The position numbers and the translations under genes were made by a program. From sequence record OR352941.1: DNA of 64,000 bases; one strand, 5' to 3'. A model generated the notes under the pieces. It searched no databases and was not told the DNA's origin. It saw only the letters and a list, made by a program, of their open reading frames with translations. This document shows positions 7,054-38,181 of the stretch, piece after piece (position 1 is the stretch's first letter; each line of letters begins with the position of its first letter). The stretch comes from Escherichia phage AV111.

Positions 7054-9267
7054 TTATTTGGCCGCTTCCACGGCCTTCATGAATTTAACGATTTGAGCGA
7101 CCTGTTCTTTGGAAAGAGTACCACGTCGTCCCATGTATTCTGACACAATATGATAATTGGTTTCGAATTCAATAACCATTTTATCATCATTATCGTAAGC
7201 ATTATCTTTAAGCTTATCGAAAATTTTAGCACACAATTCTAACTTCCTGTTCAGGTCTCTGTTATCAGCGCCTGCGAATCGATTCCATCCCCAGCGATTA
7301 TTTACTGTTGAGAGTTTTGCAAAGTCTTTACTGATTTCTTTGTTCTTAGAGCTAAAATACTTACTAAGGAAGTTAAGCTCTTCATTACGAGTAATATGAT
7401 TCAAATAAGGCTGTGCTCTACGACTTGGTGATACATACTCATCATAATCTACTTTATCGATTAGCATAATATAGTCATTAATTGATTTTTCAAACAAGCA
7501 TTCTACTTCACCAAGTTTACGAACTTTCTTAGCAATCTGTGGGCGAACTACAGTGAACTCTTTAATACCTGACAAATCGGCAATACGAGTCAAGAAACTA
7601 GAATCATAGTTCAACCAACCTTTATCTGCGTCAAGACATTCGGCGTTAGAACGATTACGAATTACAACATAACCTTGAATCTCATCAGCTTTACCGGCCG
7701 GAATAAAGAGATCTTCTGATACCCAAACATCGTTTTCATTCTTAAAGAACCGATGAGCACTTGGGGATTTAGGACGAGGTTGCGATGAACGTTCTTTAAC
7801 TTCAATCCACGGTTTAACTAATGCAAGAATTTCAGAGGTCTTATAAAATTTAAGGCTATCACCAGCGAAAATAACCTTTAATCGTTCCAGAAGTTTCATT
7901 GCAACTTCATCTTCCGGGTTAATGAATAATACGCTACTACCCCGTCCGGAAGGAACCTTATCAACGAGTGTTGATGCATCTGTGGAAGTCAAAGCATCGT
8001 TCAGAGCACGCATCATGGGTACGCGGCCTTTCACATCGTCAATAACAATATCAATATGCTTACGACTAATACCTAGCAGGCTATTAATTGAAATAGTTGC
8101 AGACGAGCTTCCGCTTTCACGAATACGACGAAGTCGTGGGTCTGAAACGATATCGTATACAACACCAAGGTTGCACCATTCAGGTCCCATTTTAAAACGT
8201 TTGTACAACTCGGAATAAGTTAGTTGTTCTTTAGAGTATTTCAGTGATTCAATATTAGACCCGGCTTTTTCCATGTATTTACGAGCAGAGTAACCAAGAG
8301 AATCGATTTCACGGAATACATGACGTGGATATTCACAATCAATCCATTTCTTAGAATCTTCAGCAAATAATTTTGCATCGATTTCTGCAACGCGTTTATG
8401 GATATTTGCTACTGTACGTTTATCAAATGACAATGCTTCACGAGACGGGGCTACATCTAGTTCACCCATAGGGAATTTAATATAAGCTGTAGTGCATCGC
8501 GTCATCATCCATGTTTGTTCTTTAATAACACTTCCAATTGGATATACAATACCACCGTAAACAGCCATGATATTACCACGTTCACCCCATGGAGCTTCCT
8601 TGGCCAAATATACATCGTCAAATTCAGGGAAGTATTTAATATCTTTAACACCACGAACTTCTGCAATATCACCTAGAGGACGCATAACATATGCAATTTC
8701 GGATGCGAACTTTTCAAAATCTTCTGGGTTAACAGGCACAACTACTTCAACGCCGGTCCGGTCATCAGGACCCATCTTATCTACAAAGGTCGGCTTAATT
8801 TGTGGACCCGTGTCATCTTGGTAGATTACGTAACCACGAACTTCGCCGTTGTGATAAGACGTAAGGTTAAACGTATCGGTATATGCTAGCGGAGCTTTAG
8901 AGCCGAGTCCGAATCCACCAATGAAATCGTTACTCGATGTTTTAGTTGAAGCAAAATATGAGTTATAGATTCCTGGCTCTTCGTCATTACCTCGAATGGT
9001 GAAATCACTCATACCAGGACCAAAGTCTCGAACTACAAAACGTGGGTCTAAACGACCTGGAGCCTGAACAATAAACTTATCAGTGCAACCATTAAGAATT
9101 TGTCCATCAATACAGTTTGTGATTAATTCACGTACACAAGCCAATTCTTTGTTTGTATAAAGGTCGTTAGACAAAATCTTATAAACTTTGCTATTGCCTT
9201 GAATAGTGAATGCTGTGCTCTTACCGCCTGAACCAATAATCGTTTCTTTAGCCGTTTCAATAATCAT
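7054..9267 (-). CDS. rIIA: rIIA protein (GHKL ATPase-like N-terminus)
   Basis: 737 aa; synteny and N-terminal similarity to T4 rIIA. Confidence 0.92.
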   Translation of the reverse strand: MIIETAKETIIGSGGKSTAFTIQGNSKVYKILSNDLYTNKELACVRELITNCIDGQILNGCTDKFIVQAPGRLDPRFVVRDFGPGMSDFTIRGNDEEPGIYNSYFASTKTSSNDFIGGFGLGSKAPLAYTDTFNLTSYHNGEVRGYVIYQDDTGPQIKPTFVDKMGPDDRTGVEVVVPVNPEDFEKFASEIAYVMRPLGDIAEVRGVKDIKYFPEFDDVYLAKEAPWGERGNIMAVYGGIVYPIGSVIKEQTWMMTRCTTAYIKFPMGELDVAPSREALSFDKRTVANIHKRVAEIDAKLFAEDSKKWIDCEYPRHVFREIDSLGYSARKYMEKAGSNIESLKYSKEQLTYSELYKRFKMGPEWCNLGVVYDIVSDPRLRRIRESGSSSATISINSLLGISRKHIDIVIDDVKGRVPMMRALNDALTSTDASTLVDKVPSGRGSSVLFINPEDEVAMKLLERLKVIFAGDSLKFYKTSEILALVKPWIEVKERSSQPRPKSPSAHRFFKNENDVWVSEDLFIPAGKADEIQGYVVIRNRSNAECLDADKGWLNYDSSFLTRIADLSGIKEFTVVRPQIAKKVRKLGEVECLFEKSINDYIMLIDKVDYDEYVSPSRRAQPYLNHITRNEELNFLSKYFSSKNKEISKDFAKLSTVNNRWGWNRFAGADNRDLNRKLELCAKIFDKLKDNAYDNDDKMVIEFETNYHIVSEYMGRRGTLSKEQVAQIVKFMKAVEAAK

Positions 9268-9279
9268 ATTTTTCTCTCA

Positions 9280-9480
9280 TCACAAGTTACGTTTAAAAAT
9301 TTCTGCTACTTCAAGAAGTTCTTCTTTAGTAGCTGTATCGGTTTGTATTTTATATCGAATTTCCTTAAAGCGTTCTTTAAAGGCTTCAGCTGATTCGATA
9401 TCAAAAAATCTTTGGATAAGCCGGAATTCCCGGAGCACTGCTTTATCAAAAAGTTCCAAGTCCACGTTATACGTTCTCAT
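9280..9480 (-). CDS. hypothetical protein (66 aa), rIIA.1 position
   Basis: ORF in track, GAAGAG RBS. Confidence 0.5.
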   Translation of the reverse strand: MRTYNVDLELFDKAVLREFRLIQRFFDIESAEAFKERFKEIRYKIQTDTATKEELLEVAEIFKRNL

Positions 9481-9505
9481 AATATTCTCTTCAGTAGATT
9501 CCTAG

Positions 9506-9556
9506 GGCACTATTACTAAAGACCATATAATTTATCATCTTATGTGTAATAGTGCC
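9506..9556 (-). promoter_or_regulatory. perfect 11-bp inverted repeat GGCACTATTAC/GTAATAGTGCC with a 29-nt loop containing a TATAAT-like element
   Basis: seen in sequence between glycosyltransferase gene stop and ORF 9280..9480 start. Confidence 0.4.
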
Positions 9557-9572
9557 TCAGGCGATTCAGGAT

Positions 9573-10673
9573 TTACGCTGTGAAGATTTTATCCCACATC
9601 GCAACAACTGCATCTCGATTATACTTCTTCCATACTGCTTCAGCACGTTTAACTCGAGCTTCGTATGTGTCAGTGAATTCTAATACAGCTTTTGTGTAAA
9701 GCGCAACTACTTCTTTCTTAGGAGTAGAGGAATCAATTTCTACACGCACAGTATCTGGGTCGTATTCGAATGTCGCATGAGGATAATCCTTAAAAACTAA
9801 CTGGATTACAGGGACACCTTTAGAAATGGCTTCAATAGAACTATTCTCTACCGTACCTGTGTCAGGACACGTATTAATAAGTGCTTTAGCTGTTTTAAGA
9901 CGTTCCATGATTTCACTGTGTGGAGCATCAATAATAACAGGATATTTAGCTGGTGGTGCCCATTTGCTTGGACAATAACCAATACCATTTTCGCCTAGTG
10001 CTTTAATTGCTTCAAGAGCAACATCAGTGCGACGCATCTTAGTGTCATAACGTTGAGCACTAATAATCAAATCAGTTGCCGGGAGAACTTCTGGCTTTTC
10101 AGACAAACAAATAACCGGGTAGTCATCAGGTTCAAATAATGGATTTTCGCGCCAGTAGTCATAATCAATTTTGTCAGTCAGACCTGAAGTCATATAACAA
10201 TATTTGCGTTCAAATTCACGGAAGGCTTTAGTAGGAGCATAGCTCTTCCCGCCGTTCTTGTGAATCTGGATAGTCTGATCCCAAATTTGAACAATACCAC
10301 GAGACACCGGTTCAAACGGCGTAGCCATAAAATTCTTATGAACTTTAGAGAGTCCAGCATCTTTAATTGCCTGAACGGTTAGTTTAGTCGGTTCCATAGT
10401 AACAACAAAATCGTATTCATGGATGCCGGCTAGTTCAACAATCTTACGAGCCATAGTATAACTCATACCTAGACTGAATTTAGTCAGATGACCAACAGGA
10501 TGATGATTAACCTTCCAATCACCAAACGTGTCATTATCAAAGCCGATATAATCAATATCAGCACCGATGGACACAAGATATTTCAACACATTTAAATGTA
10601 CTGCTTCAAGACCACCTTGTACACGGTCAGGATTAAATGGGACTGCACGAGATGGGATAAACATAACTTTCAT
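9573..10673 (-). CDS. GT-B fold glycosyltransferase-like protein; candidate DNA (hydroxymethylcytosine) glycosyl/arabinosyl-transferase
   Basis: 366 aa; C-terminal motif TGTVENSSIEAISKGVPVI resembles the GT4/GT-B donor-binding motif; lies next to rIIA where the proposed RB69 arabinosyltransferase maps (recollection). Confidence 0.55.
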   Translation of the reverse strand: MKVMFIPSRAVPFNPDRVQGGLEAVHLNVLKYLVSIGADIDYIGFDNDTFGDWKVNHHPVGHLTKFSLGMSYTMARKIVELAGIHEYDFVVTMEPTKLTVQAIKDAGLSKVHKNFMATPFEPVSRGIVQIWDQTIQIHKNGGKSYAPTKAFREFERKYCYMTSGLTDKIDYDYWRENPLFEPDDYPVICLSEKPEVLPATDLIISAQRYDTKMRRTDVALEAIKALGENGIGYCPSKWAPPAKYPVIIDAPHSEIMERLKTAKALINTCPDTGTVENSSIEAISKGVPVIQLVFKDYPHATFEYDPDTVRVEIDSSTPKKEVVALYTKAVLEFTDTYEARVKRAEAVWKKYNRDAVVAMWDKIFTA

Positions 10674-10699
10674 AATTAAGCCTTATTAAAATTAAAATG

Positions 10700-10717
10700 A
10701 AGCTCCCGAAGGAGCTT
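10700..10717 (-). terminator. terminator-like hairpin AAGCUCC-UUCG-GGAGCUU overlapping the HNH gene stop
   Basis: 7-bp stem, UUCG loop, U-rich tail. Confidence 0.55.
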
Positions 10718-11513
10718 AGGACATCCAACACATTTTATAACCTTTGCAGGTTCTGTTAGGATTATTTAATGCTTTCAATATATTAGAAGACCCTATATCT
10801 AAATACTCTCTTAATTCATAAAGATAGTTAAAATCAATAGTTTCACCTGTTTTTACACTTGTGATTCTTATAGGCCTTCTTTCATATTTAGATTTATACA
10901 ACTCTCTAGTCTTAGCTTTAGTTTCTTCTGACCTAGGAGTGTATGGTTTAAATCCTTTTGTTTTAAATGTTTCCATTCTTGATTTAGTTATTTTATCCCG
11001 GTGTTCTTTTGTTTTTACAGGTGCTTTTCGCCCATTCTCCCGAGATAACTTGTTGGCCTGTATTATTTTATCTATTGCTTCTTGCGTATGAGTTTTACCA
11101 TAAAATGGATTTAATTCGCCTATACGTTGTGAAGCAATATGTGACATTAATTCTCTTGTTGCTTTAGTATGTTTTTTACCTTTAAATGGGTTGCCATTTT
11201 TAGCAATCCATTCTTTCATAAATCTAGAGTGCTCTTTAGAGAATTCTTGTTTAAGCCAATCATAATCTCTAGAATTTCTAGCTCCCATGTAAAAAGCTCT
11301 AATAGCCATAAGCATAGAACGGTTCTTATGAATTTTATAAAGCAATAAATGGGCGATAAAATGCTCTCTAGGGGTCATTTTAACTAGATTTGATTTAGCA
11401 TTACTCCCGCCCATAGATTTAGGCAAAATATGGTGAGTTTCAGTATAATTAGGAATAGTGCTGCGGTTTTTAGCCGCAGCGATAAGTTTATCATAAATTT
11501 TACGATAATTCAT
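10716..11513 (-). CDS. HNH homing endonuclease (Mob-like, NUMOD repeats)
   Basis: HHILPKS...NLV..T..EH HNH motif; ATG at 11513 overlaps gene 39 stop (TAATG); track ORF start is an upstream alternative codon. Confidence 0.8.
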   Translation of the reverse strand: MNYRKIYDKLIAAAKNRSTIPNYTETHHILPKSMGGSNAKSNLVKMTPREHFIAHLLLYKIHKNRSMLMAIRAFYMGARNSRDYDWLKQEFSKEHSRFMKEWIAKNGNPFKGKKHTKATRELMSHIASQRIGELNPFYGKTHTQEAIDKIIQANKLSRENGRKAPVKTKEHRDKITKSRMETFKTKGFKPYTPRSEETKAKTRELYKSKYERRPIRITSVKTGETIDFNYLYELREYLDIGSSNILKALNNPNRTCKGYKMCWMS

Positions 11514-13333
11514 TATCCTAGCATCCAATCTTTACGGAGTTCAGGGTCGTTACCCATGAGCATTTCAAATAGTTCTTTCCAATTTTCAGGAAGTTTAACT
11601 ACGTCGTACACAGGGTTTTGAATCATTTCTTTATATTCATCTCGCTGAAGTGAGCCCAATCCCTTGATGTATCGAATACTATGCTTAGGCAGTGTATCTT
11701 TAACTTCTTCATACTCAGCTACAGTATAAAACCATTTTTGAGTTTTGCCAATTTGTGCAATAATTACAGGCGTTTTAACAAAGCGAATACGTCCTTGTTC
11801 AAACAATTCAGGCCAATTACTAAAGAAAGCAAGCAAAGCCGGATAAATGCTTCCAAGACCGTCATGATCGGCATCGGTCATAATTGCAATATTACGATAG
11901 TTCGTATTCTCTGCCTTTTCACCAAGAATAAGACCTGTGATAGCACAGATATCAAAGAGCTCTTTGTTCTTCATCATATCAGCATATGACATACCCCAGC
12001 TATTCATCACCTTACCACGTAATGGGAATCCGCCGTGTAGTTCACGGTCACGAACATCAATGAGATAACCAATTGCCGAATCACCTTCTGTTAAGAACAA
12101 TGTTGTATCTGCATCTTTACCACATTGGTTAGCTTTAATATGCTTATGAACCTTAGCTTTAGTTGCCTTTTTAGCTGCTTTAGTTTCTGCAGCCTTTTCT
12201 GCTGCCAATTTACGAGCTAATGCTGCTTCAACAATAGGCATAATCAAGGCTTCGTTTTTAAGAAGTGCCTGAGCAATTTTCTTAGCATCTAATTGGATAT
12301 GATTACGAATATCACCATACGTTGACGTTAAACGTTCTTTAGTCTGAGAATCAAAACGCATGTTGCTCATGTCTCTAATAAACATCAACATTGTGAGACA
12401 TTCTTTAACACGAGCTTTAGTGACTTCAATACCCTTATATTTCTTTTTAATACCTGGCAAAAGATGTTCGCAGATATCATCCATTACGCATTCAACATGA
12501 TGACCGCCGTTTTTAGTATGGATGTTATTCACATAAGTTAAATGACGGAAGCCATCTGGTGATGTTGTGAATGCTATAGAGACTTTATCATTTTCTTGAA
12601 TGATGTTATCTTCACCAAATTGTTTAGCAAATCGTTTAAAATTACCATCAACCTTTTTACCATTAAATGTGAACTTGATATCAGGATAAACGACTGCCAA
12701 TGTTTGAAGTCGATCTAAAGTAATATCTAAATAAATTTGAGATAAATTATGCTCTTCAAATGAAGAGAAATCAGGAGTGAAGATTACTTTAGTGCCTTTA
12801 CATTTAGATTTCTTAGAAGACCATGATTTGTTTTCCATTCCGTTTGAACAGTTAACAGTGATTTCATTTTCGCCATCTGACGTGATGCCTGTAAACAACG
12901 TAGAGAAGATATTAGTTAAACTACTCCCGACGCCGTTCATACCACCAGTCTTGCGTTCAGAATCATCACCAAAGTTACCACCAGCCTTTGGAATAGTCCA
13001 GGCTGCTACAGGCCCAGGAATTTGTTCACCTGTTTGGTCGGTAACTAAACCTTGAGGAATACCACGTCCGTTATCTTCCACCGAAACTTGATTATTTTTA
13101 ATTTGCACGTCAATTTTATTTGCAAACTTAAATGATGTACGAATAGCTTCATCAACCGAGTTGTCAATAATCTCATCGATTAATTTAACCAGACCAGGAA
13201 CATATTCAACTTGTTGATATTTACCAAACAAAAAACGCTCGTGGGCTTCTTTGGCCGAAGAACCAATATACATGCCACTACGTTTCTTAATATGTTCTAC
13301 ATCTGACAGTACCTTAATTTCATTTTTAATCAT
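11513..13333 (-). CDS. 39: DNA topoisomerase II large subunit gp39 (fused 39+60 ORF)
   Basis: 606 aa GyrB-like; MIKNEIKVLSDVEHIKKRSGMYIGSS matches T4 gp39; single ORF covers the region split into 39 and 60 in T4. Confidence 0.93.
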   Translation of the reverse strand: MIKNEIKVLSDVEHIKKRSGMYIGSSAKEAHERFLFGKYQQVEYVPGLVKLIDEIIDNSVDEAIRTSFKFANKIDVQIKNNQVSVEDNGRGIPQGLVTDQTGEQIPGPVAAWTIPKAGGNFGDDSERKTGGMNGVGSSLTNIFSTLFTGITSDGENEITVNCSNGMENKSWSSKKSKCKGTKVIFTPDFSSFEEHNLSQIYLDITLDRLQTLAVVYPDIKFTFNGKKVDGNFKRFAKQFGEDNIIQENDKVSIAFTTSPDGFRHLTYVNNIHTKNGGHHVECVMDDICEHLLPGIKKKYKGIEVTKARVKECLTMLMFIRDMSNMRFDSQTKERLTSTYGDIRNHIQLDAKKIAQALLKNEALIMPIVEAALARKLAAEKAAETKAAKKATKAKVHKHIKANQCGKDADTTLFLTEGDSAIGYLIDVRDRELHGGFPLRGKVMNSWGMSYADMMKNKELFDICAITGLILGEKAENTNYRNIAIMTDADHDGLGSIYPALLAFFSNWPELFEQGRIRFVKTPVIIAQIGKTQKWFYTVAEYEEVKDTLPKHSIRYIKGLGSLQRDEYKEMIQNPVYDVVKLPENWKELFEMLMGNDPELRKDWMLG

Positions 13334-17522: not shown

Positions 17523-18836
17523 TCAAATAAAATGGACGTCAAAACGACCACGAGTCGTGCCGACATATAGTAATTGTTTGGCTAATTCTGAATCGGCATA
17601 ATGGATACACGGTGTATAAACAAAGGCCGTGTCAACAGATATACCCTGGGCCTTATGGAAGGTTGATACAGGTAGTGCCTTCACCTTAGTGAACATGCGT
17701 TTAGCATCCCAGAATTCGCTCCATGGAGCTTTACCGCCTTTATTCCAGAATTTGTATGTTTCTGCGGTCTTAGCCAAAAACAAATTGAATTTATAAAGCT
17801 CTTCTTCAGAAGAAATAACCTTTATATCCTCTCGGACGTATTCCTCATCATCACCATATGTTTCTACTGTAAGATTCCAGTATCGTATCATATATTCGCC
17901 TGAAACACCACGTGCTTTAACGAATGTAGACGTTTCTACAGCATCTCGAATACGAACGAATTGCCCATTATTGAAAAGCATTTCGGTCATATTTTTACCG
18001 TCTAGCTTATATGTCTTAGTAAATGGCTCTTGTAGAACAATGACTTCGTCTTTAATAAATGGTTTTTCTGTTTCAAGAAGTTTTCGGCGAATAATTGAAT
18101 TTAACTTGTCCACCGACTTATTTGTGAATGCCATCATTCGATTTTCGAAAAGGTCTTCAGGAGTTTTAACGACGTTAAAATAGTTCATCATATACGATTT
18201 AAGGTCTGTATATCCATGAACGCCGTGCCCATCAACTACTTTATCGTAAATCCATTTGCCATTACGAATATCAGTCGCAACATCAATAATTGGTGCATTG
18301 CTACGTTTAACTTCTGTAAGGTTGCATTGCACGAAGTCTTTGTGAGTGAAGAAAGGACTTAGATACGCAGTTGATTCGCCTGGGTCTACCGGACGAATCT
18401 GGCATCGGTCGCCGATTCCAATTACTGTACACCATTTAGGGATACTAGCTAACATTATTTTAAACAGAGAACGGTCGCACATTGACGCTTCATCAAATAA
18501 CAGTACACGACACAAGGCTAAGTCGGGAACCTTTTTCTGTTCAAACAATACGTTTTCTTCGTATGTAGTTGGGTTGATTTTAAGAATGCTATGAATAGTC
18601 GATGCTTCTTGACCCGCAAGTTTGCTTAGAACCTTTTTAGCGGCATGTGTAGGGGCTGCTAAAATAATACCTGATTCTCCTGAAGAAATAAGAGCTTCAA
18701 CAATAAATCTAGTAAGGGTTGTTTTACCTGTACCAGCCGGTCCATTAATAGTTACATGATGTTTCTTTTCTTTAATAGCTTCCATAACAACGTTGAAGGC
18801 GTTTTTCTGGCCTTCAGTCAAATCATCAAATGTCAT
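17523..18836 (-). CDS. dda: Dda DNA helicase (SF1)
   Basis: 437 aa; Walker A GPAGTGKTT; length and synteny match T4 Dda. Confidence 0.9.
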   Translation of the reverse strand: MTFDDLTEGQKNAFNVVMEAIKEKKHHVTINGPAGTGKTTLTRFIVEALISSGESGIILAAPTHAAKKVLSKLAGQEASTIHSILKINPTTYEENVLFEQKKVPDLALCRVLLFDEASMCDRSLFKIMLASIPKWCTVIGIGDRCQIRPVDPGESTAYLSPFFTHKDFVQCNLTEVKRSNAPIIDVATDIRNGKWIYDKVVDGHGVHGYTDLKSYMMNYFNVVKTPEDLFENRMMAFTNKSVDKLNSIIRRKLLETEKPFIKDEVIVLQEPFTKTYKLDGKNMTEMLFNNGQFVRIRDAVETSTFVKARGVSGEYMIRYWNLTVETYGDDEEYVREDIKVISSEEELYKFNLFLAKTAETYKFWNKGGKAPWSEFWDAKRMFTKVKALPVSTFHKAQGISVDTAFVYTPCIHYADSELAKQLLYVGTTRGRFDVHFI

Positions 18837-19144
18837 CGTAAAGTCCCTGCAATTGGAATACTAACAATACGGCCAGTGTCCAGGATTCGTTGATACAATC
18901 TTTGCGTCTCCGCATCTAGTTTAATGTGTTTCATTTCAAGCTTATTAAACCAGAACTTACGCGGAGTTTCGACCATTCTTAGAACTCCCATTTTTAAATC
19001 TGTTTTATACTGTGTTTTCAAAGTATCGAAAACTTTATCTGCAATATCCTTTCTAAAAAATACTGCAGGACGATGCTCATCAAGTGGAACCGGGACAGTA
19101 AATCCTTCCATATCTCGATAAACTATTGCATATACATAAACCAT
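18833..19144 (-). CDS. hypothetical protein (103 aa), dda.1 position
   Basis: ORF in track; ATGA overlap with dda. Confidence 0.5.
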   Translation of the reverse strand: MVYVYAIVYRDMEGFTVPVPLDEHRPAVFFRKDIADKVFDTLKTQYKTDLKMGVLRMVETPRKFWFNKLEMKHIKLDAETQRLYQRILDTGRIVSIPIAGTLR

Positions 19145-19146
19145 AA

Positions 19147-19893
19147 TTAACCTTTAATCAGTTGGAATAATGATGCGCTAAGTGGTAAGCCACGTTTCAA
19201 TTTTAATTTACCAATGAAACCAATCTTTTCAAAACGTTGCAGACCTTGGATAACTTTATCATATGTATCGAAAAGCGATTCAGCGTCAGTTAATTTAGTT
19301 TTAGTTTTCCAGTCAGAGCCTTTAAGAAGAACGTTGAGTTTAGTAAGTTCATGGCCTTCTGCTTGATGTGAGCCATTAATGCGTGCTTTCAAAGCAACAA
19401 TTCTAAGTTTAGATTCGTTAGATAAAGGTTGATTTTTCATCATGTTCGCCATATGCTTAACACGATTTTCACGTTTTGCTCGGATTTTTAAAATAGTATC
19501 ATAAACCTTTTTAATTTGGGCCCATTTCTTCTCGTCGAGATTAAGTTTCTCTACTTTACGGGCAGAAGGATTAGCAATACGTCTTGCAACAGCGTCACGT
19601 TTCTCAATAAGTTCTTCTAATGTTAAATCAGAACGAGCCGTGTTATATTTTTTCTTAACTGGGATAACATTACCTTTAATGTAGCCGATATCGTTATTAA
19701 AACGTTCTAAGGATAATTTCTCACCTTCAACAGAGTTATTAAAGGATTCGCCTGAGTAAGCGCAGACCTTTTGATCAAGAATGTTTTTAAGGTAATTAAA
19801 GTCTAAGTTAAAATCCTTAGAGCGTCTCTTCGCAGAAGCTCTGGTGTGGTCAAGACGACGATTGATTTTGTTAATTTTATTATTTGATAACAT
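19147..19893 (-). CDS. srd: Srd-like protein
   Basis: 248 aa; position between dda and modA as in T4; sequence not independently recognised. Confidence 0.5.
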   Translation of the reverse strand: MLSNNKINKINRRLDHTRASAKRRSKDFNLDFNYLKNILDQKVCAYSGESFNNSVEGEKLSLERFNNDIGYIKGNVIPVKKKYNTARSDLTLEELIEKRDAVARRIANPSARKVEKLNLDEKKWAQIKKVYDTILKIRAKRENRVKHMANMMKNQPLSNESKLRIVALKARINGSHQAEGHELTKLNVLLKGSDWKTKTKLTDAESLFDTYDKVIQGLQRFEKIGFIGKLKLKRGLPLSASLFQLIKG

Positions 19894-19944
19894 AATATTT
19901 TCCTCTGTCTTACGGACGTTAAGGTCATTTAGCTGATAAGTCTA

Positions 19945-19970
19945 TAATATCATGCCCTCAGGTAGTGTAC
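19945..19970 (-). promoter_or_regulatory. early promoter (-35 GTGTAC, 17 nt, TGnTATTAT) upstream of srd
   Basis: read from sequence. Confidence 0.5.
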
Positions 19971-20046
19971 ACTCTTTTTTCGTAAAATGCTTTAATTTTT
20001 TATGTGTTATAATGGTTCTGAGTTCCATCCGGTTATTCCAATTCAG

Positions 20047-20655
20047 TCAGTAACTGACAATAGACAGATTCCAGATTGTATAACGTCCATCTTGAATAAT
20101 AGAATCTACACGCAGTGTAGTCCCTATAGGGAGCATAAATTCACATTCGTCAGATATAAGTCTAGCATTAGACCGTCTTGTCGCTTCAGGGAAAGCTCCA
20201 TTGAACTCACAAGATGGCGCAGCCAGAATCATGTTAAGCATATGTTCACGGAAGTTGAAAGCAAATGGTGCATCTTTGATGCAGAACATATTAAATGTTC
20301 CGTAAAAATTATACGAAGCAAAGTTACGTGCTACACCGAACACTGGGCTGAAGCTCATTACTCTGTCAAATTTAATAATACTACCAATGCCTTTATCATC
20401 AAGTGTGGCCATAGTTTTCTTAGAGATTCCACGATACATTGTCTCAGGAACAGAAGACGTCCAATTTCTACGAACGATTGAACTTAACTCCTGTTGAATA
20501 CAGTCTGGCTTGTTTTCCATACACTGCCAAAGGATGCTTTGTTCATTATCGTTGAATTGACTATCAATTTCGTACTGCAATACATCTTGATATTCGGGGG
20601 TTTGAGCACGACGAACCATTTCTTCAATTTCACACTCGTTATACGGCATAAACAT
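20047..20655 (-). CDS. modA: ADP-ribosyltransferase ModA-like
   Basis: 202 aa; YRG motif; paralog of the adjacent gene; synteny. Confidence 0.7.
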   Translation of the reverse strand: MFMPYNECEIEEMVRRAQTPEYQDVLQYEIDSQFNDNEQSILWQCMENKPDCIQQELSSIVRRNWTSSVPETMYRGISKKTMATLDDKGIGSIIKFDRVMSFSPVFGVARNFASYNFYGTFNMFCIKDAPFAFNFREHMLNMILAAPSCEFNGAFPEATRRSNARLISDECEFMLPIGTTLRVDSIIQDGRYTIWNLSIVSY

Positions 20656-20683
20656 TTAGGTTTCTCCTGTGGTTGATAGAGGT

Positions 20684-20712
20684 ATAGTATCATCATCGGA
20701 AGAGTTTGTACA
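20684..20712 (-). promoter_or_regulatory. early promoter (-35 TGTACA, 17 nt, -10 TACTAT) upstream of modA
   Basis: read from sequence. Confidence 0.5.
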
Positions 20713-21294
20713 CTAAAAATTCAACATTTTCAAATGAATGATTTTGTATAATCGAGATAAAGGGTCATATTCTAAGTCTTCAATTTCCACAATCTCAAAT
20801 CTAGAGATACCTGAGACCATGTACTCTTGTTCAGATTCAATCATATCTAGGACGTCAACACGCTTTTCTTCCATAATATGCTTAGGGTTCTTTCCGGCGA
20901 GTACAATGTTAACCATGTTTTGGTAGTAATCAAAAATGAATGGAGCATTCCTGAGACTAAGAATAGTGTACGTCTGATACTCCCAACTCCCAGAGAATTG
21001 ACGAGCTGTACTGAAATCAGTTGTGAACGATGTTACTCGTCCAGGAGACCAATGACATCCAACAGAAAGAAGTGAAAGACGTTCTACTTCTTCTGGAGTT
21101 ACACCACGGTAGAGTTCTACTGGTACTGTAGAAGTCATATGCTTACGAACAAGATGGTCTAATTCATAGTGGAAATCCGGGTCTTCCTTAGAATCGGTGC
21201 AAGCCCAGAGAATGTTTTGTTCTTGTTTAGTGAATTTGCTATCAATCAGATTTGTTAGGTATTCACGTTCTTGAAGTTCAGATTGACATGTCAT
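20713..21294 (-). CDS. modB: ADP-ribosyltransferase ModB-like
   Basis: 193 aa; YRG motif; paralog of modA. Confidence 0.7.
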   Translation of the reverse strand: MTCQSELQEREYLTNLIDSKFTKQEQNILWACTDSKEDPDFHYELDHLVRKHMTSTVPVELYRGVTPEEVERLSLLSVGCHWSPGRVTSFTTDFSTARQFSGSWEYQTYTILSLRNAPFIFDYYQNMVNIVLAGKNPKHIMEEKRVDVLDMIESEQEYMVSGISRFEIVEIEDLEYDPLSRLYKIIHLKMLNF

Positions 21295-30785: not shown

Positions 30786-31127
30786 TTAAAAGAATTTAAA
30801 TTTTTTCTTGGTTCGTTCATTAAAAGCTTGTTGTACTTGCATTGTAACACATTTTTCAACATGTGGTGCAAGTTCTGCTTTTCTGTCCTGGTCAAGAACT
30901 GCAAAGTCCATTACGATTTTACCACCAACCCAGTCTAGTTTTGTAATATAGACTATATGATGGGAACCGTCTTCAAGTGTAATCAGAATCTCTTGAATGA
31001 CATTTTCCATTGCTGAACGGATAATTTTAAGAGATTCATTAAACACTCGTTCTTTGCGAATGTCCTCCCCTTCCGAAGAAGGGGATTCATCAACGATTTC
31101 TAGATTTAAATCATCGAGATTATTCAT
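30786..31127 (-). CDS. 40: gp40-like protein
   Basis: ATG at 31127 overlaps uvsX stop (ATGAATAA); about 113 aa; synteny. Confidence 0.6.
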   Translation of the reverse strand: MNNLDDLNLEIVDESPSSEGEDIRKERVFNESLKIIRSAMENVIQEILITLEDGSHHIVYITKLDWVGGKIVMDFAVLDQDRKAELAPHVEKCVTMQVQQAFNERTKKKFKFF

Positions 31128-32292
31128 CGAAATCTTCCATTTCGTCAAGGTCGTTTTCAATATCTGCTGCAGACGGAGCATCAGAAGTTTTAACCGGAAC
31201 TTTAGTTGTTGCTTTGCAATTAATAAGGTCATTAACAGCGTCATCAACTTCTTTAATAGAAGAGATAGCACCTAGTTTATATTTAGTTTCAATTGCATCT
31301 CGGAAAGGCTTATGTTTAAACAACGGCCCCCAGAATTCTACACAATCAGTAGCTTTAGCACGCCATGATTTCTCTTCACGAATCATTTCGCCTGTTTCTT
31401 CGTCAAGGAATTCGCGAGCATACCAACCGGCTTTAGGCTTAACCACAAAACCGATTTCAGTTGCCATTTCTAGCAAGCCGCTGAATGGGTCGATACCACC
31501 ATCAAAATTAACCGTGATCGGGAAAGTAGATTTCTCTTTAACTGTACGAGATTTTTCTGCTTTCAACGTGAAGTCATAACCGGTCAATTCTGTACCTTCT
31601 TTAACCTGACGTTTAGAGATAAAAAATACCGTGTTGGCAGAATAAAGAATACCTGTACCACCACCCATAATCTCTTTAGGATATAGTCCGCCGATTTCCA
31701 TTGCTGTATGGTTGATTGCAACACATGGAATATCTTTAATAGTCAGATAAGGAGTCACAATGCGGAACAGAGATTTAAGTGCCTTAGCACGAGACATATC
31801 ACCTACAACTTTCTCGTTCAACGCATCTTCGGTTTCTTTCTTAGATGCAGTATTACCGATTGAATCGATAAAGATAATAACTTTATCACCGCGTTCAATC
31901 GCGTCAAGCTGATTAGTCATATCAACTTTAAGTTGTTCGACAGATTGAATCGGAGTATGAACTACACGGTCTAAATCAACACCCATTGAACGAAAATAAG
32001 ATTCTGAAGCACCAAATTCTGAATCATAGAACAAACAAATTGCATCTTTATATTTCTTCATATATGCTGCAACCATGGTCAGTCCAAACAACGTTTTAAA
32101 GTGTTTAGAAGGAGCAGCAAAAATAGTCAAGCCTGATTGCAATCCTGCATTCAGAGCACCACCTAGTGCAATATTCAACATCGGAATACGAGTAGGGACT
32201 TCATCACGATTATTAAACAGCTTAGACTTAGTCAAGTCTGCAGTCATTTTAGAAGTAGAAGCTTTAATCAGACGAGATTTTAAATCAGACAT
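31120..32292 (-). CDS. uvsX: UvsX recombinase (RecA-like)
   Basis: 390 aa; matches T4 UvsX length and N-terminus. Confidence 0.95.
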   Translation of the reverse strand: MSDLKSRLIKASTSKMTADLTKSKLFNNRDEVPTRIPMLNIALGGALNAGLQSGLTIFAAPSKHFKTLFGLTMVAAYMKKYKDAICLFYDSEFGASESYFRSMGVDLDRVVHTPIQSVEQLKVDMTNQLDAIERGDKVIIFIDSIGNTASKKETEDALNEKVVGDMSRAKALKSLFRIVTPYLTIKDIPCVAINHTAMEIGGLYPKEIMGGGTGILYSANTVFFISKRQVKEGTELTGYDFTLKAEKSRTVKEKSTFPITVNFDGGIDPFSGLLEMATEIGFVVKPKAGWYAREFLDEETGEMIREEKSWRAKATDCVEFWGPLFKHKPFRDAIETKYKLGAISSIKEVDDAVNDLINCKATTKVPVKTSDAPSAADIENDLDEMEDFDE

Positions 32293-32390: not shown

Positions 32391-32939
32391 TTAACGAGCC
32401 CATTTAATGATTTCTGTAATCAAATTATTACGTTCGCTTGCATTAAATCCTATAACTTTGTTAGAACCATCATGATTAAGTAATTGATACGTTTGGATTT
32501 TGTTATGAATTGCAAACTCTTCAAAATGTGAAATGACTGTATTAAAACCGAATGAAGACAAAGTAATAAGGTCGTCTTCAAAACTTTCAGACATTTCGTT
32601 ACGTGTTAAAATAATTGTGAACACATCATGGTTTTGGCAAAGACGAACATAATCCTGTTCATAAACGTCAAGAACCGAGTCCGCATCTTGTCGAATACGT
32701 CCATAAACCCAGTTACTAATATATCCACGGTCTAACAGATAAATCTTAGTAGGGTCTAAATAATTCAACATCGTTTCGAAACAGCCAACTTCATTTCGAG
32801 ACTTAACATCGAAACGTCCATCAACTGTTCGTTTAGGGAAATCAATCTTTACATATCTTTCACTAATTTCCATTATGTCATTAATGAAAGTTGTTTTACC
32901 AGCATTATCTGGGCCATCTACTAAAATAATTTTAGCCAT
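32391..32939 (-). CDS. P-loop kinase-like protein (182 aa)
   Basis: Walker A DGPDNAGKTT at the N-terminus; sits where T4 has beta-gt. Confidence 0.55.
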   Translation of the reverse strand: MAKIILVDGPDNAGKTTFINDIMEISERYVKIDFPKRTVDGRFDVKSRNEVGCFETMLNYLDPTKIYLLDRGYISNWVYGRIRQDADSVLDVYEQDYVRLCQNHDVFTIILTRNEMSESFEDDLITLSSFGFNTVISHFEEFAIHNKIQTYQLLNHDGSNKVIGFNASERNNLITEIIKWAR

Positions 32940-32940
32940 T

Positions 32941-33840
32941 TTATTCCTCGATTACGACATCTTCATATTTAGGTATATTATACGGCGAAGAAATTAAAGC
33001 GTTAAAGTAGATGAACTCACCAAGACCTGGATGGAATACTTCTTCAGGATTTTCGAAATATTGAATCTTCGGACGTCCTTTAAGAATTTGATAGTACTCA
33101 GTTTTAGTTGGATTAAAAATTCGAATCAGCGCTTCTTCAGGATACTTATTTCTGTCGAAACTATTATTTGGATCAGTTATATAAAGCGGTTGACCTAATT
33201 GAATTGCGCATTCAACCACTTGTTCAAAACGATAGCATGGGTCACTAATTCGAAATGGATGAAAAATACCATCTAGATGAATAGGAGCCAAATCACCTAC
33301 AAGACGCTGCATGACGGAAGGACGTATAACTTTCTGCGTTACGATAATCTTATTACCATCTGCACCTGCGTTAACCAGCACTTCTTTTTGACGTTCATTC
33401 AACACAGTAGTTTGAAGTGAACGATTAACAGACAACATGTCGGTTTTTAAGAATTCATCAATATAAAAACGTGGTTTATTAGGGTCTGCAGTGATATTGA
33501 AATTGAATTCTACATCAAAAGCGCCGTCATATCCAGTGATATCTGTGATTAGAAAATCGCAATCATAATAAGCAATTAATGAATCAACTACAAATTCATT
33601 TTCAGACCAGAAATATTTACGAGTGTTATACGCGTTATCTTTATACCATAATGGAACAAACTTAAATTCTGGAAAAAGACGTTCGCATTCTTTAATATCA
33701 GATGCATTACGTGGATATGTAATCACATCACCCGGATTAGCACGGTGCAAATGAAGTTGGAAGTTGCCATCCTTAAGGATAGCATACTGTCCAGTTTCAT
33801 AAGACCGCATACTCAAGATAGGTACGCGGAAAATAGCCAT
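32941..33840 (-). CDS. hypothetical protein (299 aa)
   Basis: ORF in track; part of the cassette between uvsX and gene 43. Confidence 0.5.
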   Translation of the reverse strand: MAIFRVPILSMRSYETGQYAILKDGNFQLHLHRANPGDVITYPRNASDIKECERLFPEFKFVPLWYKDNAYNTRKYFWSENEFVVDSLIAYYDCDFLITDITGYDGAFDVEFNFNITADPNKPRFYIDEFLKTDMLSVNRSLQTTVLNERQKEVLVNAGADGNKIIVTQKVIRPSVMQRLVGDLAPIHLDGIFHPFRISDPCYRFEQVVECAIQLGQPLYITDPNNSFDRNKYPEEALIRIFNPTKTEYYQILKGRPKIQYFENPEEVFHPGLGEFIYFNALISSPYNIPKYEDVVIEE

Positions 33841-34556
33841 TAGTCAAGGAATCCTTTAACATAATCAAAATCACGTTCAAACACATGGGCACTTACCATG
33901 GTATGAGTATAATCACCAACTTCTACACCACATTCGTTAGCGATATAATGAAGTAATTTTCCTTGGAGATAAAAATCCAACTGCATAACAACAGCACAGT
34001 TCTGAGAACGCATATGACAGTGGGTATAAAGCTTACCATCACGAATATAATAAGTCACTGAGTCAGTACATGGATATTCAAGCGTTTCGTCTGAATCAAG
34101 CAAAGCCTGATCAGAACTTTCTAGAATTTGGAACACAACTCTTCGAGAGTTAGGCTTCTCTTTAAGTTCTTTTAGAAGAGCTGGTAATTGAGCCGCAATG
34201 CGAGGACCATAGAAAGTGTTGAAGTTCGCCGGCAAAACATCTGATTTTGGTTTAGAAATAAATTTAGCGACATTAGGATATGCCTTAAACGCTTCTTCTG
34301 CGTTGGTACCACCAGAAATCATAAACTTCCAGAAGTCTTCGGCATATTCATAAGAGATGCGGTTAATACGTGGGTCGGTCATTTTGAATGATGACGGAGT
34401 GTCAACAACTACTGTCATAGACCCAATTTCATTACAACGTCCAATACGAGAATCAGTTACGAATTCCGGGTTTTCTAAAATTTCACGATTGACTGCTTTA
34501 AATGCGGTTTGAAAATCTGCGGCTTTGATATATTTCATTGTGTTATGTTTTCCCAT
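33840..34556 (-). CDS. thymidylate-synthase-family pyrimidine hydroxymethylase, divergent gp42-like
   Basis: motifs NSRR, EYPCT (catalytic Cys), YYIRDGK, HMRSQN align with T4 gp42 DSRR, FMCT, YLIRDKK, MRSND but overall identity is low. Confidence 0.65.
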   Translation of the reverse strand: MGKHNTMKYIKAADFQTAFKAVNREILENPEFVTDSRIGRCNEIGSMTVVVDTPSSFKMTDPRINRISYEYAEDFWKFMISGGTNAEEAFKAYPNVAKFISKPKSDVLPANFNTFYGPRIAAQLPALLKELKEKPNSRRVVFQILESSDQALLDSDETLEYPCTDSVTYYIRDGKLYTHCHMRSQNCAVVMQLDFYLQGKLLHYIANECGVEVGDYTHTMVSAHVFERDFDYVKGFLD

Positions 34557-34597: not shown

Positions 34598-34837
34598 TTA
34601 TTTGAATTTCTTGGCAGTGTTGATATAACGTAAAGCTTCAGCATCGATACTTCCAAGAACACTATGAAGAAATGCATCAGCGTAGTATTCCAATTGAACA
34701 GATTCTTTAATCACTTTAGCCGCTTTAGTTTCAAACAGGCCCATCAGGGCCTTTTTAAGAATTTGTTCATTAGTGTTCAGTTTCATAGTCAAAATCTCTT
34801 CATTAAGTTGGTGGTTAAAAGTTTTTCTAGAAATCAT
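34598..34837 (-). CDS. hypothetical protein (79 aa)
   Basis: ORF in track. Confidence 0.4.
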   Translation of the reverse strand: MISRKTFNHQLNEEILTMKLNTNEQILKKALMGLFETKAAKVIKESVQLEYYADAFLHSVLGSIDAEALRYINTAKKFK

Positions 34838-35994
34838 TCCGGGTACCTCAAAGCGTCATCAGAGTTAGTTATATCAATAATAGATATAGAGTTTTCTGCT
34901 AACCCGTTTTTAGATAATTGACGTTTATAATATCTTTCACAATATGTACACGTCGTCCCGCAGATTTCATTAGCACAATCGAAATCTGGATGTCTGAACC
35001 ACCTTTTTTCTAAAAAGCCATCTAACAAAGAGGTTTCAATATTTACTGTATGTGAAAACTCAGTTTCGTTTTCAAGAGTGAAAATAGTCTCTAAAGGCTT
35101 CCACAGTTCTAACAAATTACCTTCAAACTTTTCAGAAGCGTATGCTTCAAGAACTTTCAAAATGTAGTCTGTGCTACCTGTACGTCCTGAAACTTTGAAT
35201 TGAGTGATACCAATATCATTATAAAGTTTCAAATCTTGAGGACGAACAAAACGAGTTCTCAACCAGTTAAATGGGTCTGTATCACGAGCTTTAATACAGT
35301 GCTGCATAGGATATCCGTTTAAGGATTTAGCATCATCAGCTGTAACATCAGTACTATGGAAAATATAGCAAGAGTCACGATAGCTACAATGTGTTGTATA
35401 CCCTTTACCAGCATTAGAACAGAACTCATTTACAAGAACTTCAAATATTATATTGTTCTTATTGCAAAACTCTGCTGCACGCTTCAGGAAAGAAACTGAA
35501 CGGTTCTTATGAATTCCACAGCAGACCTTTTTGATATTATATTGGTCATGCAAGTATTTGATTTGAGTTACAGCATCGACATGTAGAATTGTTGAAACTT
35601 CAATCTCAATGTCTTTATTGACTTCACGAACAATTTCCATAACAACAGGGTTAGCGATAGTAATACGCCATACGCCTATTGACCAAAGATACTGAACATA
35701 ATCCTGAATAGCTTTCTTCTTCCACTCAACTAGTTCTCTTTTTGAACCAGGATTTATCGTGTTGAGTGTATAGTTAAAGCAAATACCTAATTCGTTACAA
35801 CGTTTAACGTAATCTTCTAACATCTTTTTGTCAACGTCAGGAAGCCTAAAATCAGGTCTGGCTGCTACAAAAGCCATTTCTCTTGTAGAGCCGTATACTT
35901 CGTTTATCAAGCTATTAGGATAGGTTTTATTGAGCTCTACGATTTTATCAAGAAGAGCTAAATCAAAATTCGTTCCGATTTTAAAAGTATTCAT
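34834..35994 (-). CDS. Cys-cluster protein (386 aa), possible Fe-S enzyme
   Basis: C-terminal CX4CX3CX2C cluster and an EFCSNAGKGYTTHCS segment reminiscent of the peptidase U32 signature. Confidence 0.5.
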   Translation of the reverse strand: MNTFKIGTNFDLALLDKIVELNKTYPNSLINEVYGSTREMAFVAARPDFRLPDVDKKMLEDYVKRCNELGICFNYTLNTINPGSKRELVEWKKKAIQDYVQYLWSIGVWRITIANPVVMEIVREVNKDIEIEVSTILHVDAVTQIKYLHDQYNIKKVCCGIHKNRSVSFLKRAAEFCNKNNIIFEVLVNEFCSNAGKGYTTHCSYRDSCYIFHSTDVTADDAKSLNGYPMQHCIKARDTDPFNWLRTRFVRPQDLKLYNDIGITQFKVSGRTGSTDYILKVLEAYASEKFEGNLLELWKPLETIFTLENETEFSHTVNIETSLLDGFLEKRWFRHPDFDCANEICGTTCTYCERYYKRQLSKNGLAENSISIIDITNSDDALRYPE

Positions 35995-36056: not shown

Positions 36057-36458
36057 TTATAGATTCGGTTTATATGATTTAAATGTTTCGAATTCGCCTT
36101 TATTCATAAGAGCTTTGAATTCATCAGGACGCATAGCTTTGTCGTCGATAATCCAATCATATACTGGTTTATGTGTTAGCAAATTATGGTACTTCAAACC
36201 AATGTTTTCCAAGTTCTGAATAAGACTTGGGAGAATGTCAATTGCTATACGACCAGGACCTACTGACTTCATACCACGAGCAGTGTAAAGCGTTATGGTA
36301 TGCCCTGCATCATACAGGGCATTAATGGCAGACACCATTTCGACGTCTGGTTTGAAGTTCACGTAATCACGATTGTTATTCCATTCCGTGATGCAATCAT
36401 CGACATCAAAACAAAGATTAAGCATGTTTTCTACACAGTGCATTAGATTCGTTCCCAT
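36057..36458 (-). CDS. HAD-superfamily phosphatase (133 aa)
   Basis: motif I FDVDDCIT (DxDxT), motif II TARG, motif III WIIDDK. Confidence 0.65.
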   Translation of the reverse strand: MGTNLMHCVENMLNLCFDVDDCITEWNNNRDYVNFKPDVEMVSAINALYDAGHTITLYTARGMKSVGPGRIAIDILPSLIQNLENIGLKYHNLLTHKPVYDWIIDDKAMRPDEFKALMNKGEFETFKSYKPNL

Positions 36459-38128
36459 TGATGAGTGATATCGCCACCGATTGGACGATAAGAAACACCA
36501 GTTTCTTTATCAGTTAGTACCCATTTACCAGGATTTTTTGTAATCAGAGTAGCCGTTACAGGTTCTGCTACGTCATAACTAATAGAGCCGTCTTGAAGTA
36601 CACGGCCCATGTTACGTAATTGCTTAGTCAGAAGTTCCATACCTTTATAATATGCTGCTACCGCTTTAAGTGGATTATTCTTGAAATAACCACCTAATGC
36701 AATCCAGATAATTGCTACAGCCAAATGATGATACTCGTTAAACGAACTCATCTTTCCATATTTGTAAACTAATGGATTGATGTTAATAGTCACATTACAA
36801 GTTGTTTCATCAATAGTAAACTGTCCCCAGGCCGGATTAGCATTGAATTCATCATAACCTGAAACAGCATAAAGCACTTTAGCTTCATCATACAATTTTG
36901 GCCCGTAAATCTTGGTTTCGCCAAAATATCCACGAGGGTCGATAAACTTGACTTCGCCGTTATCAGTAATCATAGTATTACTGAAGTTCGGGTCACCATG
37001 AATAACAGAGTACTGTCCCTGAGAACGGTTATGATAACGAATAAGGTGTTCTAAAGCTTGTTTCAGCATTGGCTTCAGACGTCCAATCTTAGTGTAGTTC
37101 ACATGTGTGATTTTACCAAATGAATCAATCAATGGTTGAATACTTTCACAACGATCAATAACTTTCGTATAGAATTCTTTAGTGAAATCACGACGAACAG
37201 TTTCAGGACTTACAAAATAAGTGTCTGTGCTGAATTTCAGTGCATCTAAAATTGCATCAACAATTTGTGGACGAGCAAGACTTGATTTGGATTTAATATA
37301 TTCAAATGCCGGCTTACCTTTAATGCGTTCCATTTCAAAGTTATTTTCATTAACAGAAACTAACTGAGGAACTGAATCTGATTTCACTTTAAGATACCAC
37401 GAAATCTCATCTTTCTGAAGAGCTCGACCCTGTTCGGTTAATGCGAATTTAGTTACAGTTTCTTCACCAATTTCAACTGCATTAAAACTACGATTAAGTT
37501 CACGAACTTCATGAGCTTTTTCAAGTTTAGGCATATCACCTAAATCAATTAGATTCATAAGCTCTGATTTATTGAATGCGCTGCCGTAAAGGAATTCTAC
37601 GAAATCACGTCCTTTGCAGTATTCATGAATTTCCTCATCGGTAGAACCCATATAGAATTCCCAGTCTTTGAACTGATAAATTCCTACAACATTACCACCT
37701 GTTGAACCTACGTTAGTGATATTTTCACCGTCGAAATTATATCGACATTCATCACCCTTAACATAGATTGCGTTAACATTCCAAGACCATGAACCAAAAT
37801 CAGGAATAATATCACACCAGTTAACAATTACGTTATGGCCGTCTAAATCTTTGTGTAATTTAGCAAGAGCATAAGCAGAACCATACGCTTCATCAACTGT
37901 ACGAATAGTCACATTGAACCCTTCTTGCTCACAATAAGCTCGAACAGTTTCAGCAAATTTTGAATGAACTACTACAATAATTTCATCTGCGCCAAGGTCA
38001 GAATAAATTGTATACAAATTGCTCAGAATAGTGTCTTGTTTATAGTTAACAAGCACCTTAGGAATATGATGCGTTATTGGATACAAACGAGTTGCCAGTC
38101 CAGCACCAAGAATAACAGCTTTTTTCAT
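36443..38128 (-). CDS. bifunctional sugar-1-phosphate nucleotidyltransferase / kinase (561 aa)
   Basis: N-terminus MKKAVILGAGLATRLYPIT (GxGTRLxPxT); C-terminal HGDPNFSN (HxDxxxxN) kinase motif. Confidence 0.7.
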   Translation of the reverse strand: MKKAVILGAGLATRLYPITHHIPKVLVNYKQDTILSNLYTIYSDLGADEIIVVVHSKFAETVRAYCEQEGFNVTIRTVDEAYGSAYALAKLHKDLDGHNVIVNWCDIIPDFGSWSWNVNAIYVKGDECRYNFDGENITNVGSTGGNVVGIYQFKDWEFYMGSTDEEIHEYCKGRDFVEFLYGSAFNKSELMNLIDLGDMPKLEKAHEVRELNRSFNAVEIGEETVTKFALTEQGRALQKDEISWYLKVKSDSVPQLVSVNENNFEMERIKGKPAFEYIKSKSSLARPQIVDAILDALKFSTDTYFVSPETVRRDFTKEFYTKVIDRCESIQPLIDSFGKITHVNYTKIGRLKPMLKQALEHLIRYHNRSQGQYSVIHGDPNFSNTMITDNGEVKFIDPRGYFGETKIYGPKLYDEAKVLYAVSGYDEFNANPAWGQFTIDETTCNVTININPLVYKYGKMSSFNEYHHLAVAIIWIALGGYFKNNPLKAVAAYYKGMELLTKQLRNMGRVLQDGSISYDVAEPVTATLITKNPGKWVLTDKETGVSYRPIGGDITHQWERI

Positions 38129-38156
38129 GTTGAAGTCCTCATTGGTAAGTAGGAGT

Positions 38157-38181
38157 ATTGTACACTATTCTAGTTAAAGCA
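38157..38181 (-). promoter_or_regulatory. MotA-type middle promoter for the nucleotidyltransferase/kinase gene (TGCTTTA, 12 nt, -10 TACAAT)
   Basis: read from sequence. Confidence 0.5.

Follow-up and report, generated by a model that had tools for sequence, protein, structure and literature searches.

Escherichia phage AV111 carries, between gene 39 and the rIIA region, a 366-amino-acid (aa) open reading frame (ORF) that resembles a glycosyltransferase gene, and the question is which acceptor this enzyme serves and at which step of DNA modification. The ORF occupies positions 9573-10673 on the minus strand of a 64,000-nucleotide stretch of sequence record OR352941.1 (hereafter the window). 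The phage belongs to Mosigvirus, the RB69-like group of T-even phages. A 2.4-kb region centred on the ORF shares 96.5-97.6% identity with ECO111 5-P, phi25-307, p000v and similar phages, and the 30-55 kb part of the window is ~98% identical to APCEc01, JK42 and others. An earlier note on this DNA had proposed that the ORF encodes a GT-B-fold enzyme that transfers a pentose to hydroxymethylcytosine (hmC) in DNA. We arrive at a related assignment, to which we give a probability of roughly three in four: the ORF encodes a chain-extending, second arabinosyltransferase that acts on DNA-linked arabinose on 5-hydroxycytosine. Its role in DNA arabinosylation as such is well supported; which acceptor it uses (mono-arabinosyl-5-hydroxycytosine in DNA), at which step it acts and which linkage it forms are inferred.

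A genuine gene for a GT-B glycosyltransferase

The ORF, which lies where the earlier note had placed it and begins with an ATG on the minus strand, is a genuine gene under strong purifying selection and no chance reading frame. It matches PHROG 8302 over its entire length (E = 5e-222, residues 1-366 of 366), tblastn detects relatives in 211 phage records (ORF intact in 209), and the ratio of non-synonymous to synonymous substitution rates is low (0.037 compared with RB69, 0.075 compared with Bas47). PHROG 8302, its sole match in PHROGs, bears the label "unknown function". Members of the family that are homologous over the full length are RB69 ORF003c/gp3 (NP_861693.1; 360 of 366 residues identical, 98%), the glycosyltransferase of phage HY126, and gp76 and gp77 of the Acinetobacter phage DLP3. 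The Bas47 copy is annotated as "putative hmC-arabinosyltransferase".

This family is very narrow. A word-indexed search of a 5.8-billion-protein index returned 5, then 10 clusters of relatives, and an exhaustive profile search of 1.84 billion cluster representatives yielded 12 matches. A deep alignment could not be built; from an 11-sequence alignment AlphaFold2 nevertheless modelled the protein confidently, with a mean predicted local distance difference test score (pLDDT) of 90.2 and a predicted template modelling score (pTM) of 0.87. The model consists of two Rossmann-like β/α/β domains facing a central cleft, the architecture of the GT-B fold. When compared with the PDB by Foldseek, it retrieved entries 9ir0 and 9iqz first (98% identity, template modelling score 0.94-0.97), both titled "phage HY126 glycosyltransferase" and 9ir0 containing uridine diphosphate (UDP); phmmer links all 366 residues to the same two entries (E = 1e-247). 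The next Foldseek matches are GT4-type enzymes, namely PimA, BshA, MshA, WaaG and tetrahydrobiopterin glucosyltransferase. The AV111 protein is thus a GT-B enzyme, as the earlier note had proposed, and from the 98%-identical structure it is predicted to bind a UDP-sugar, the crystallisation of its near-identical HY126 counterpart with UDP pointing to the nucleotide-sugar donor. By the same near-identity its structure can be regarded as already solved experimentally in effect.

Relationship to the GT4 family

The C-terminal segment TGTVENSSIEAISKGVPVI (residues 272-290) had been singled out in the earlier note as resembling the nucleotide-sugar binding motif of GT4/GT-B enzymes, and a search with the Glycos_transf_1 hidden Markov model (HMM) had been suggested as a check. 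The search was negative: a scan of the 366-aa ORF against Pfam gave no family at E ≤ 10 and one against NCBIfam none at E ≤ 1. The resemblance itself proved sound. Conservation within the family is highest in this segment, with T272, G273, T274, V275, E276, N277, S279, E281, A282, I283, S284, G286, P288 and V289 invariant or nearly so, and it aligns to KETFGISNFEAAQRGIPIV, the EX7E region of a distant relative that we call P0016. This relative matches Pfam Glyco_transf_4 at 31.9 bits (above the cut-off) and Glycos_transf_1 weakly, and profile-profile comparison by hhalign relates it to the 366-aa family with a probability of 97.9% over 340 columns.

P0016 contains a canonical E-x7-E (KETFGISNFEA), aligned on DTGTVENSSIEA. 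Only the second glutamate is kept in the 366-aa family (E281), the position of the first being T272, and a family-invariant E276, separated from E281 by four residues, gives E-x4-E in place of the EX7E motif that marks GT4 enzymes. The models of CAZy GT4 (Pfam PF00534 and PF13439) are likewise reached by the indirect bridge of P0016 and not by the protein itself. The 366-aa protein is GT4-like in fold and ancestry, yet it fails the HMM and motif tests for GT4. Thomas et al. 2018 (PMC6024577) named G20, Arg-207 and E281 in ORF003c; the conserved arginine is R208 in our alignments.

Arabinosylated 5-hydroxycytosine and its pathway in the window

The idea that this gene encodes a GT-B DNA arabinosyltransferase is not new; it first appeared in 2018, and work of 2025-26 has refined it. 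In the original study, Thomas et al. 2018 (PMC6024577) reported arabinose in RB69 DNA, proposed ORF003c as a GT-B arabinosyltransferase, the very hypothesis of the earlier note, and named the cassette between gene 43 and uvsX as the source of UDP-arabinose. The modified RB69 cytosine has since been resolved as β-D-Araf-(1→3)-α-D-Araf-5-hydroxy-2'-deoxycytidine (Araf, arabinofuranose), for which a flavin-dependent ThyA homolog makes 5-hydroxy-dCMP, hmC not being the precursor (PMC13326640; also PMC13390438). The arabinosylation role proposed in the earlier note stands accordingly and its hmC acceptor does not, since the Mosigvirus base is arabinosylated 5-hydroxy-deoxycytidine (5-hydroxy-dC; PMC13326640, PMC13390438). 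In Table 1, section 26, of PMC13326640, RB69 gp3 is listed as "β-arabinosyltransferase 2" and gp46:47 as "arabinosyltransferase 1". Type II restriction and type I CRISPR-Cas are blocked by this recently resolved phage DNA hypermodification, as are glycosylases and some type IV enzymes. RB69-like phages have two transferases for it, of which the 366-aa gene encodes one.

The full 5-hydroxy-dC/UDP-Araf pathway is present in the window, so that the 366-aa gene co-occurs with a 5-hydroxy-dCMP synthase, a UDP-Araf cassette and a further glycosyltransferase of 299 aa. These genes (Table 1) are located between uvsX (31120-32292) and the DNA polymerase gene (38986-41697), ~22 kb from the 366-aa gene, a distance that separates the 299-aa and 366-aa genes in Mosigvirus. 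The ThyA-like protein matches the HY126 enzyme structures 9iqc and 9ir2 and the entry 9iqu (E ~1e-160), whose codes belong to the same PDB series as the HY126 transferase entries. The 299-aa protein is a confident GT-B enzyme. We considered whether the 299-aa and 366-aa proteins are paralogs of each other and rejected this (BLASTP E = 2.1).

Taken with the published chemistry, these genes suggest the following course. The ThyA-like enzyme would produce 5-hydroxy-dC in place of dC, and the cassette at 36057-38945 would supply UDP-Araf. The 299-aa GT-B enzyme would add the first α-arabinofuranose to O5 of 5-hydroxycytosine, after which the 366-aa enzyme would move a second arabinofuranose from UDP-Araf onto the DNA-linked sugar, in a linkage that is β-1→3 in RB69. 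Cytosine would end up di-arabinosylated, a state in which the genome is protected against restriction and CRISPR.

Copy number follows sugar-chain length

We compared the distribution of the two transferase families across 50,697 phage records. The 299-aa family occurs in 348 of them, in many genera, with one copy each and always beside a ThyA homolog; its carriers are Escherichia, Shigella, Klebsiella, Enterobacter, Edwardsiella, Yersinia, Serratia, Proteus, Pectobacterium, Erwinia, Shewanella and Acinetobacter phages. The distribution of the 366-aa family is essentially a subset of this. It is present in one copy in Mosigvirus (~155 records, ≥95% identity) and in two copies in Acinetobacter phages (55 records), its hosts being confined to Escherichia, Shigella and Acinetobacter phages and one record named "Tegunavirus"; tblastn against the same records gave no match in those named Klebsiella, Serratia, Enterobacter, Proteus, Yersinia or Shewanella phages. 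About 137 records contain the ThyA-like gene, the cassette and the 299-aa glycosyltransferase and lack the 366-aa family.

The "Tegunavirus" record holds a family member of <60% identity, outside both the Mosigvirus and the Acinetobacter-phage groups, and could represent a further di-arabinosylating lineage.

The number of copies tracks the published length of the sugar chain. Thanatos DNA is mono-arabinosylated, that of RB69, NP, Bas46 and Bas47 di- and that of DLP3 tri-arabinosylated (PMC13326640, PMC13390438, PMC12923530; for Bas46 and Bas47, a passage of PMC12923530 that cites Mahler et al. 2025 gives double arabinosylation), and these phages possess zero, one and two members of the 366-aa family, respectively. 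The Thanatos cassette has a 299-type glycosyltransferase only. In DLP3, gp77 (43% identity) and gp76 (41%) are full-length members arranged in tandem within the cassette, where they immediately follow the kinase and 299-type genes and have the ThyA homolog beside them, and the purified pair converts RB69 DNA with UDP-Araf to the tri-arabinosyl form (PMC13326640, section 26). Because these paralogs sit in the cassette and together arabinosylate DNA, the involvement of the 366-aa gene in DNA arabinosylation is well founded; because the 299-aa enzyme is found in all arabinosylating phages, with zero, one or two copies of the 366-aa family accompanying mono-, di- and tri-arabinosylation, extension is its most probable part. 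The distribution therefore supports the published assignment, in which the 299-aa protein initiates and the 366-aa protein extends.

Two further observations concern Thanatos. TH1_065, a 378-aa protein at the position of DLP3 gp77, was examined as a hidden family member, since a match would have upset the correlation with copy number, and rejected, as it is U32-peptidase-like and hhalign gave a probability of 0.1%. At 18381-20781 of Thanatos-1, a "recombination protein" gene, which by its position next to the cassette is probably the uvsX counterpart, is in two pieces (TH1_067 and TH1_070) around TH1_068, a GIY-YIG Seg-like homing endonuclease gene and thus another homing-endonuclease insertion adjoining the arabinosylation cassette.

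Weighing the alternatives

Several points weigh against the extender assignment. The copy-number correlation is based on only three chemically characterised lineages. In PMC13326640, in vitro transfer to arabinosylated DNA is shown for DLP3 gp76 and gp77 together, and these paralogs work only as a pair, whereas Mosigvirus has a single family member. The closest structural relatives are retaining GT4 enzymes, yet the proposed product is β against the α configuration of the first sugar. Moreover, the DLP3 transferases, the 299-type gp79 among them, were each inactive alone on 5-hydroxycytosine DNA (PMC13326640), so that initiation by the 299-aa enzyme is likewise no more than a proposal; the nucleotide, and not DNA, may be what receives the first sugar.

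Thomas et al. 2018 and the earlier note both understood the 366-aa enzyme to be the one that puts the first arabinose on the modified cytosine, which would leave some other function to the 299-aa protein. We regard this as unlikely. The ~137 records with the ThyA-like gene, the cassette and the 299-aa glycosyltransferase have no member of the 366-aa family; Thanatos is among them, and its DNA is nevertheless pentosylated (PMC12838424, PMC13326640). The substrate of the gp76/gp77 paralogs is DNA that bears arabinose beforehand. The 299-aa protein, encoded inside the cassette, is a confident GT-B enzyme in its own right and the better candidate for the first sugar; it had been missed in the earlier note, whose "most plausible transferase" for the cassette pentose was the 366-aa protein.

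That DLP3 gp76 and gp77 are active combined and inactive singly (PMC13326640, section 26) also raises the prospect that the 366-aa enzyme works only when complexed with a partner, be it the 299-aa transferase or some other protein, possibly serving both sugar additions without a fixed second step. Its chances appear slim, because the UDP-containing PDB entry of the HY126 ortholog names no protein besides it, which suggests that it is stable and binds nucleotide alone, and because the two genes lie far apart in Mosigvirus. An acceptor unrelated to DNA modification, such as a host envelope glycan, a lipid or a protein, would accord with the lipids, small molecules and polysaccharides on which the nearest structural neighbours act and with one metagenomic family member that its source labels "glycosyltransferase involved in cell wall biosynthesis". 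The family is, however, confined to phages that also carry the 5-hydroxy-dC/UDP-Araf pathway, is embedded in the arabinosylation cassette in Acinetobacter phages and includes paralogs that modify DNA in vitro (PMC13326640), all of which makes such an acceptor highly improbable. Extension of DNA-linked arabinose is thus the reading that we prefer.

Genomic neighbourhood

On the minus strand the genes are arranged in the order gene 39, HNH endonuclease gene, 366-aa ORF, rIIA.1 and rIIA, and the order in RB69 and Bas47 is identical except for the missing HNH gene (Table 1). All three flanking elements named in the earlier note, the HNH gene, a UUCG hairpin and an 11-bp inverted repeat, were recovered. 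The RB69 annotation describes T4 gene 39 as split into 39 and 60. No homolog of the 366-aa ORF was detected by tblastn in the records of T4-type phages, among them no match in Tequatrovirus. To this extent the statement of the earlier note that no T4 gene occupies the site is correct, but we take the interval between gene 39 and rIIA in T4 to be filled by gene 60, mobA and rIIA.1.

Table 1. Coordinates of the 366-aa gene, its neighbours and the arabinosylation genes in the window
Feature	Position	Strand	Remarks
rIIA	7054-9267	-	Downstream neighbour
rIIA.1	9280-9480	-	Downstream neighbour
Inverted repeat between transferase gene and rIIA.1	9501-9561	unassigned	Conserved
366-aa GT-B glycosyltransferase ORF	9573-10673	-	ATG start; ortholog of RB69 ORF003c/gp3 and HY126 glycosyltransferase (PDB 9iqz/9ir0)
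Shine-Dalgarno AAGG	10681-10684	-	7 nt 5' of ATG (10673-10671); read directly from the sequence
Terminator-like hairpin AAGCUCC-UUCG-GGAGCUU, then CAUUUUAAUU	10700-10717	-	Overlaps HNH stop codon
HNH homing-endonuclease gene	10716-11513	-	PHROG 655, E = 1e-55; polymorphic insertion that RB69 and Bas47 do not have
Gene 39, topoisomerase II large subunit, fused 39+60 form, 606 aa	11513-13333	-	
182-aa ORF, counterpart of RB69 gp45/DLP3 gp78 nucleotide-kinase-like protein	32391-32939	-	By position only, no Pfam match; function from PMC13326640
299-aa GT-B glycosyltransferase, ortholog of RB69 gp46:47 and DLP3 gp79	32941-33840	-	Candidate initiating (α) arabinosyltransferase; adjoins ThyA-like gene; PMC13326640
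ThyA-family enzyme, ortholog of HY126/RB69 gp48 5-hydroxy-dCMP synthase	33840-34556	-	PMC13326640
Peptidase-U32-like protein, RB69 gp50 counterpart	34834-35994	-	
133-aa ORF, counterpart of RB69 gp51/HY126 AfhF (Araf-1,5-P2 phosphatase)	36057-36458	-	By position only; function from PMC13326640
561-aa bifunctional NTP-transferase and kinase, RB69 gp52:53/HY126 AfhE counterpart	36443-38128	-	Makes UDP-Araf; PMC13326640
SIS-domain arabinose-5-phosphate isomerase, RB69 gp55 counterpart	38310-38945	-	PMC13326640

The hairpin upstream of the transferase gene, with a 7-bp stem, a UUCG loop and a U-rich tail, is the terminator-like hairpin of gene 39, directly 3' of which it is found in phages without the HNH insertion. 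We claim no promoter for the 366-aa gene itself, since the 26 nt from the hairpin to the ATG are too short to hold one; a consensus scan for such a promoter gave 8 sites compared with 9.3 expected in shuffled sequence.

The HNH insertion comprises ~800 bp (region 10716-11528); in RB69 and Bas47, gene 39 is separated from the transferase gene by just 42 bp. Its ATG overlaps the stop codon of gene 39 (TAATG at 11511-11515), and CATCCA is present at both junctions. While gene 39 of AV111 ends in ...DWMLG*, the end of the HNH gene (...CWMS*) re-creates the ...EWMS* end of Bas47 gene 39 together with the UUCG hairpin. Of the 179 records that match a 2.4-kb query spanning the HNH gene, only 19 reach a query coverage of 80% or more.

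On the other side of the transferase gene, the arms of the inverted repeat (9501-9516 and 9546-9561) share an 11-bp perfect core that extends to 16 nt at 88% complementarity, folding into a long hairpin without a U tail (-27.6 kcal/mol, z = -4.7). The intergenic region 9481-9572 is nearly invariant, differing from RB69 and Bas47 at 1-3 of 92 positions against a synonymous divergence of 0.25 from RB69 in the adjacent gene. Situated before rIIA.1-rIIA, the repeat probably functions in regulation or RNA processing.

Comparison with known systems

For the locus as first described, our analysis means that the hmC acceptor chemistry is outdated and that the gene for the first sugar is better sought in the cassette. 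Order of action, stereochemistry, the addition of the first sugar to DNA or to nucleotide and the need for a partner are questions that others are pursuing already, and we raise no new one beyond these.

The closest known systems are RB69 and HY126, whose proteins are 98% identical over the full 366 aa (6-9 substitutions in AV111) and whose genomes encode the same pathway. In RB69 the gene also has the same neighbours, gene 39, rIIA.1 and rIIA, the HNH gene between gene 39 and the transferase gene being the difference of AV111 from both RB69 and Bas47. DLP3 gp77 and gp76 (β-arabinosyltransferases 2 and 3) belong to the same family and as a pair extend DNA-linked arabinose from UDP-Araf in vitro (PMC13326640). 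Whereas DLP3 has its two copies inside the cassette and makes tri-arabinosyl-5-hydroxy-dC, AV111 has a single copy remote from the cassette and belongs to a lineage in which mono- and di-arabinosyl forms are made.

Identity to the retaining GT-B enzymes of GT4 (PimA, BshA, MshA, WaaG and sucrose-phosphate synthase) amounts to only 10-14%, and the AV111 enzyme differs from them in its T272 and E276 as well as in its proposed donor, a furanose, and its proposed acceptor, a sugar on DNA. A tentative, rather doubtful idea is that the 366-aa family branched off from the retaining GT4 scaffold and has an unusual mechanism, its T272/E276 motif being an adaptation to a donor that is a furanose and to an acceptor sugar tethered in the major groove of DNA. 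Such an enzyme might form its β linkage by a stereochemical course unlike that of its relatives, or might need a partner transferase as the DLP3 paralogs do.

The enzyme is not one of the T-even hmC glucosyltransferases, as it has no detectable sequence homology to the α-glucosyltransferase (agt, PDB 1y6f) or the β-glucosyltransferase (bgt) of T4 and hmC is not its acceptor. The T4 enzymes place glucose onto the hydroxymethyl group of hmC, whereas the 366-aa enzyme most likely places arabinofuranose onto a sugar that is itself borne by 5-hydroxycytosine.
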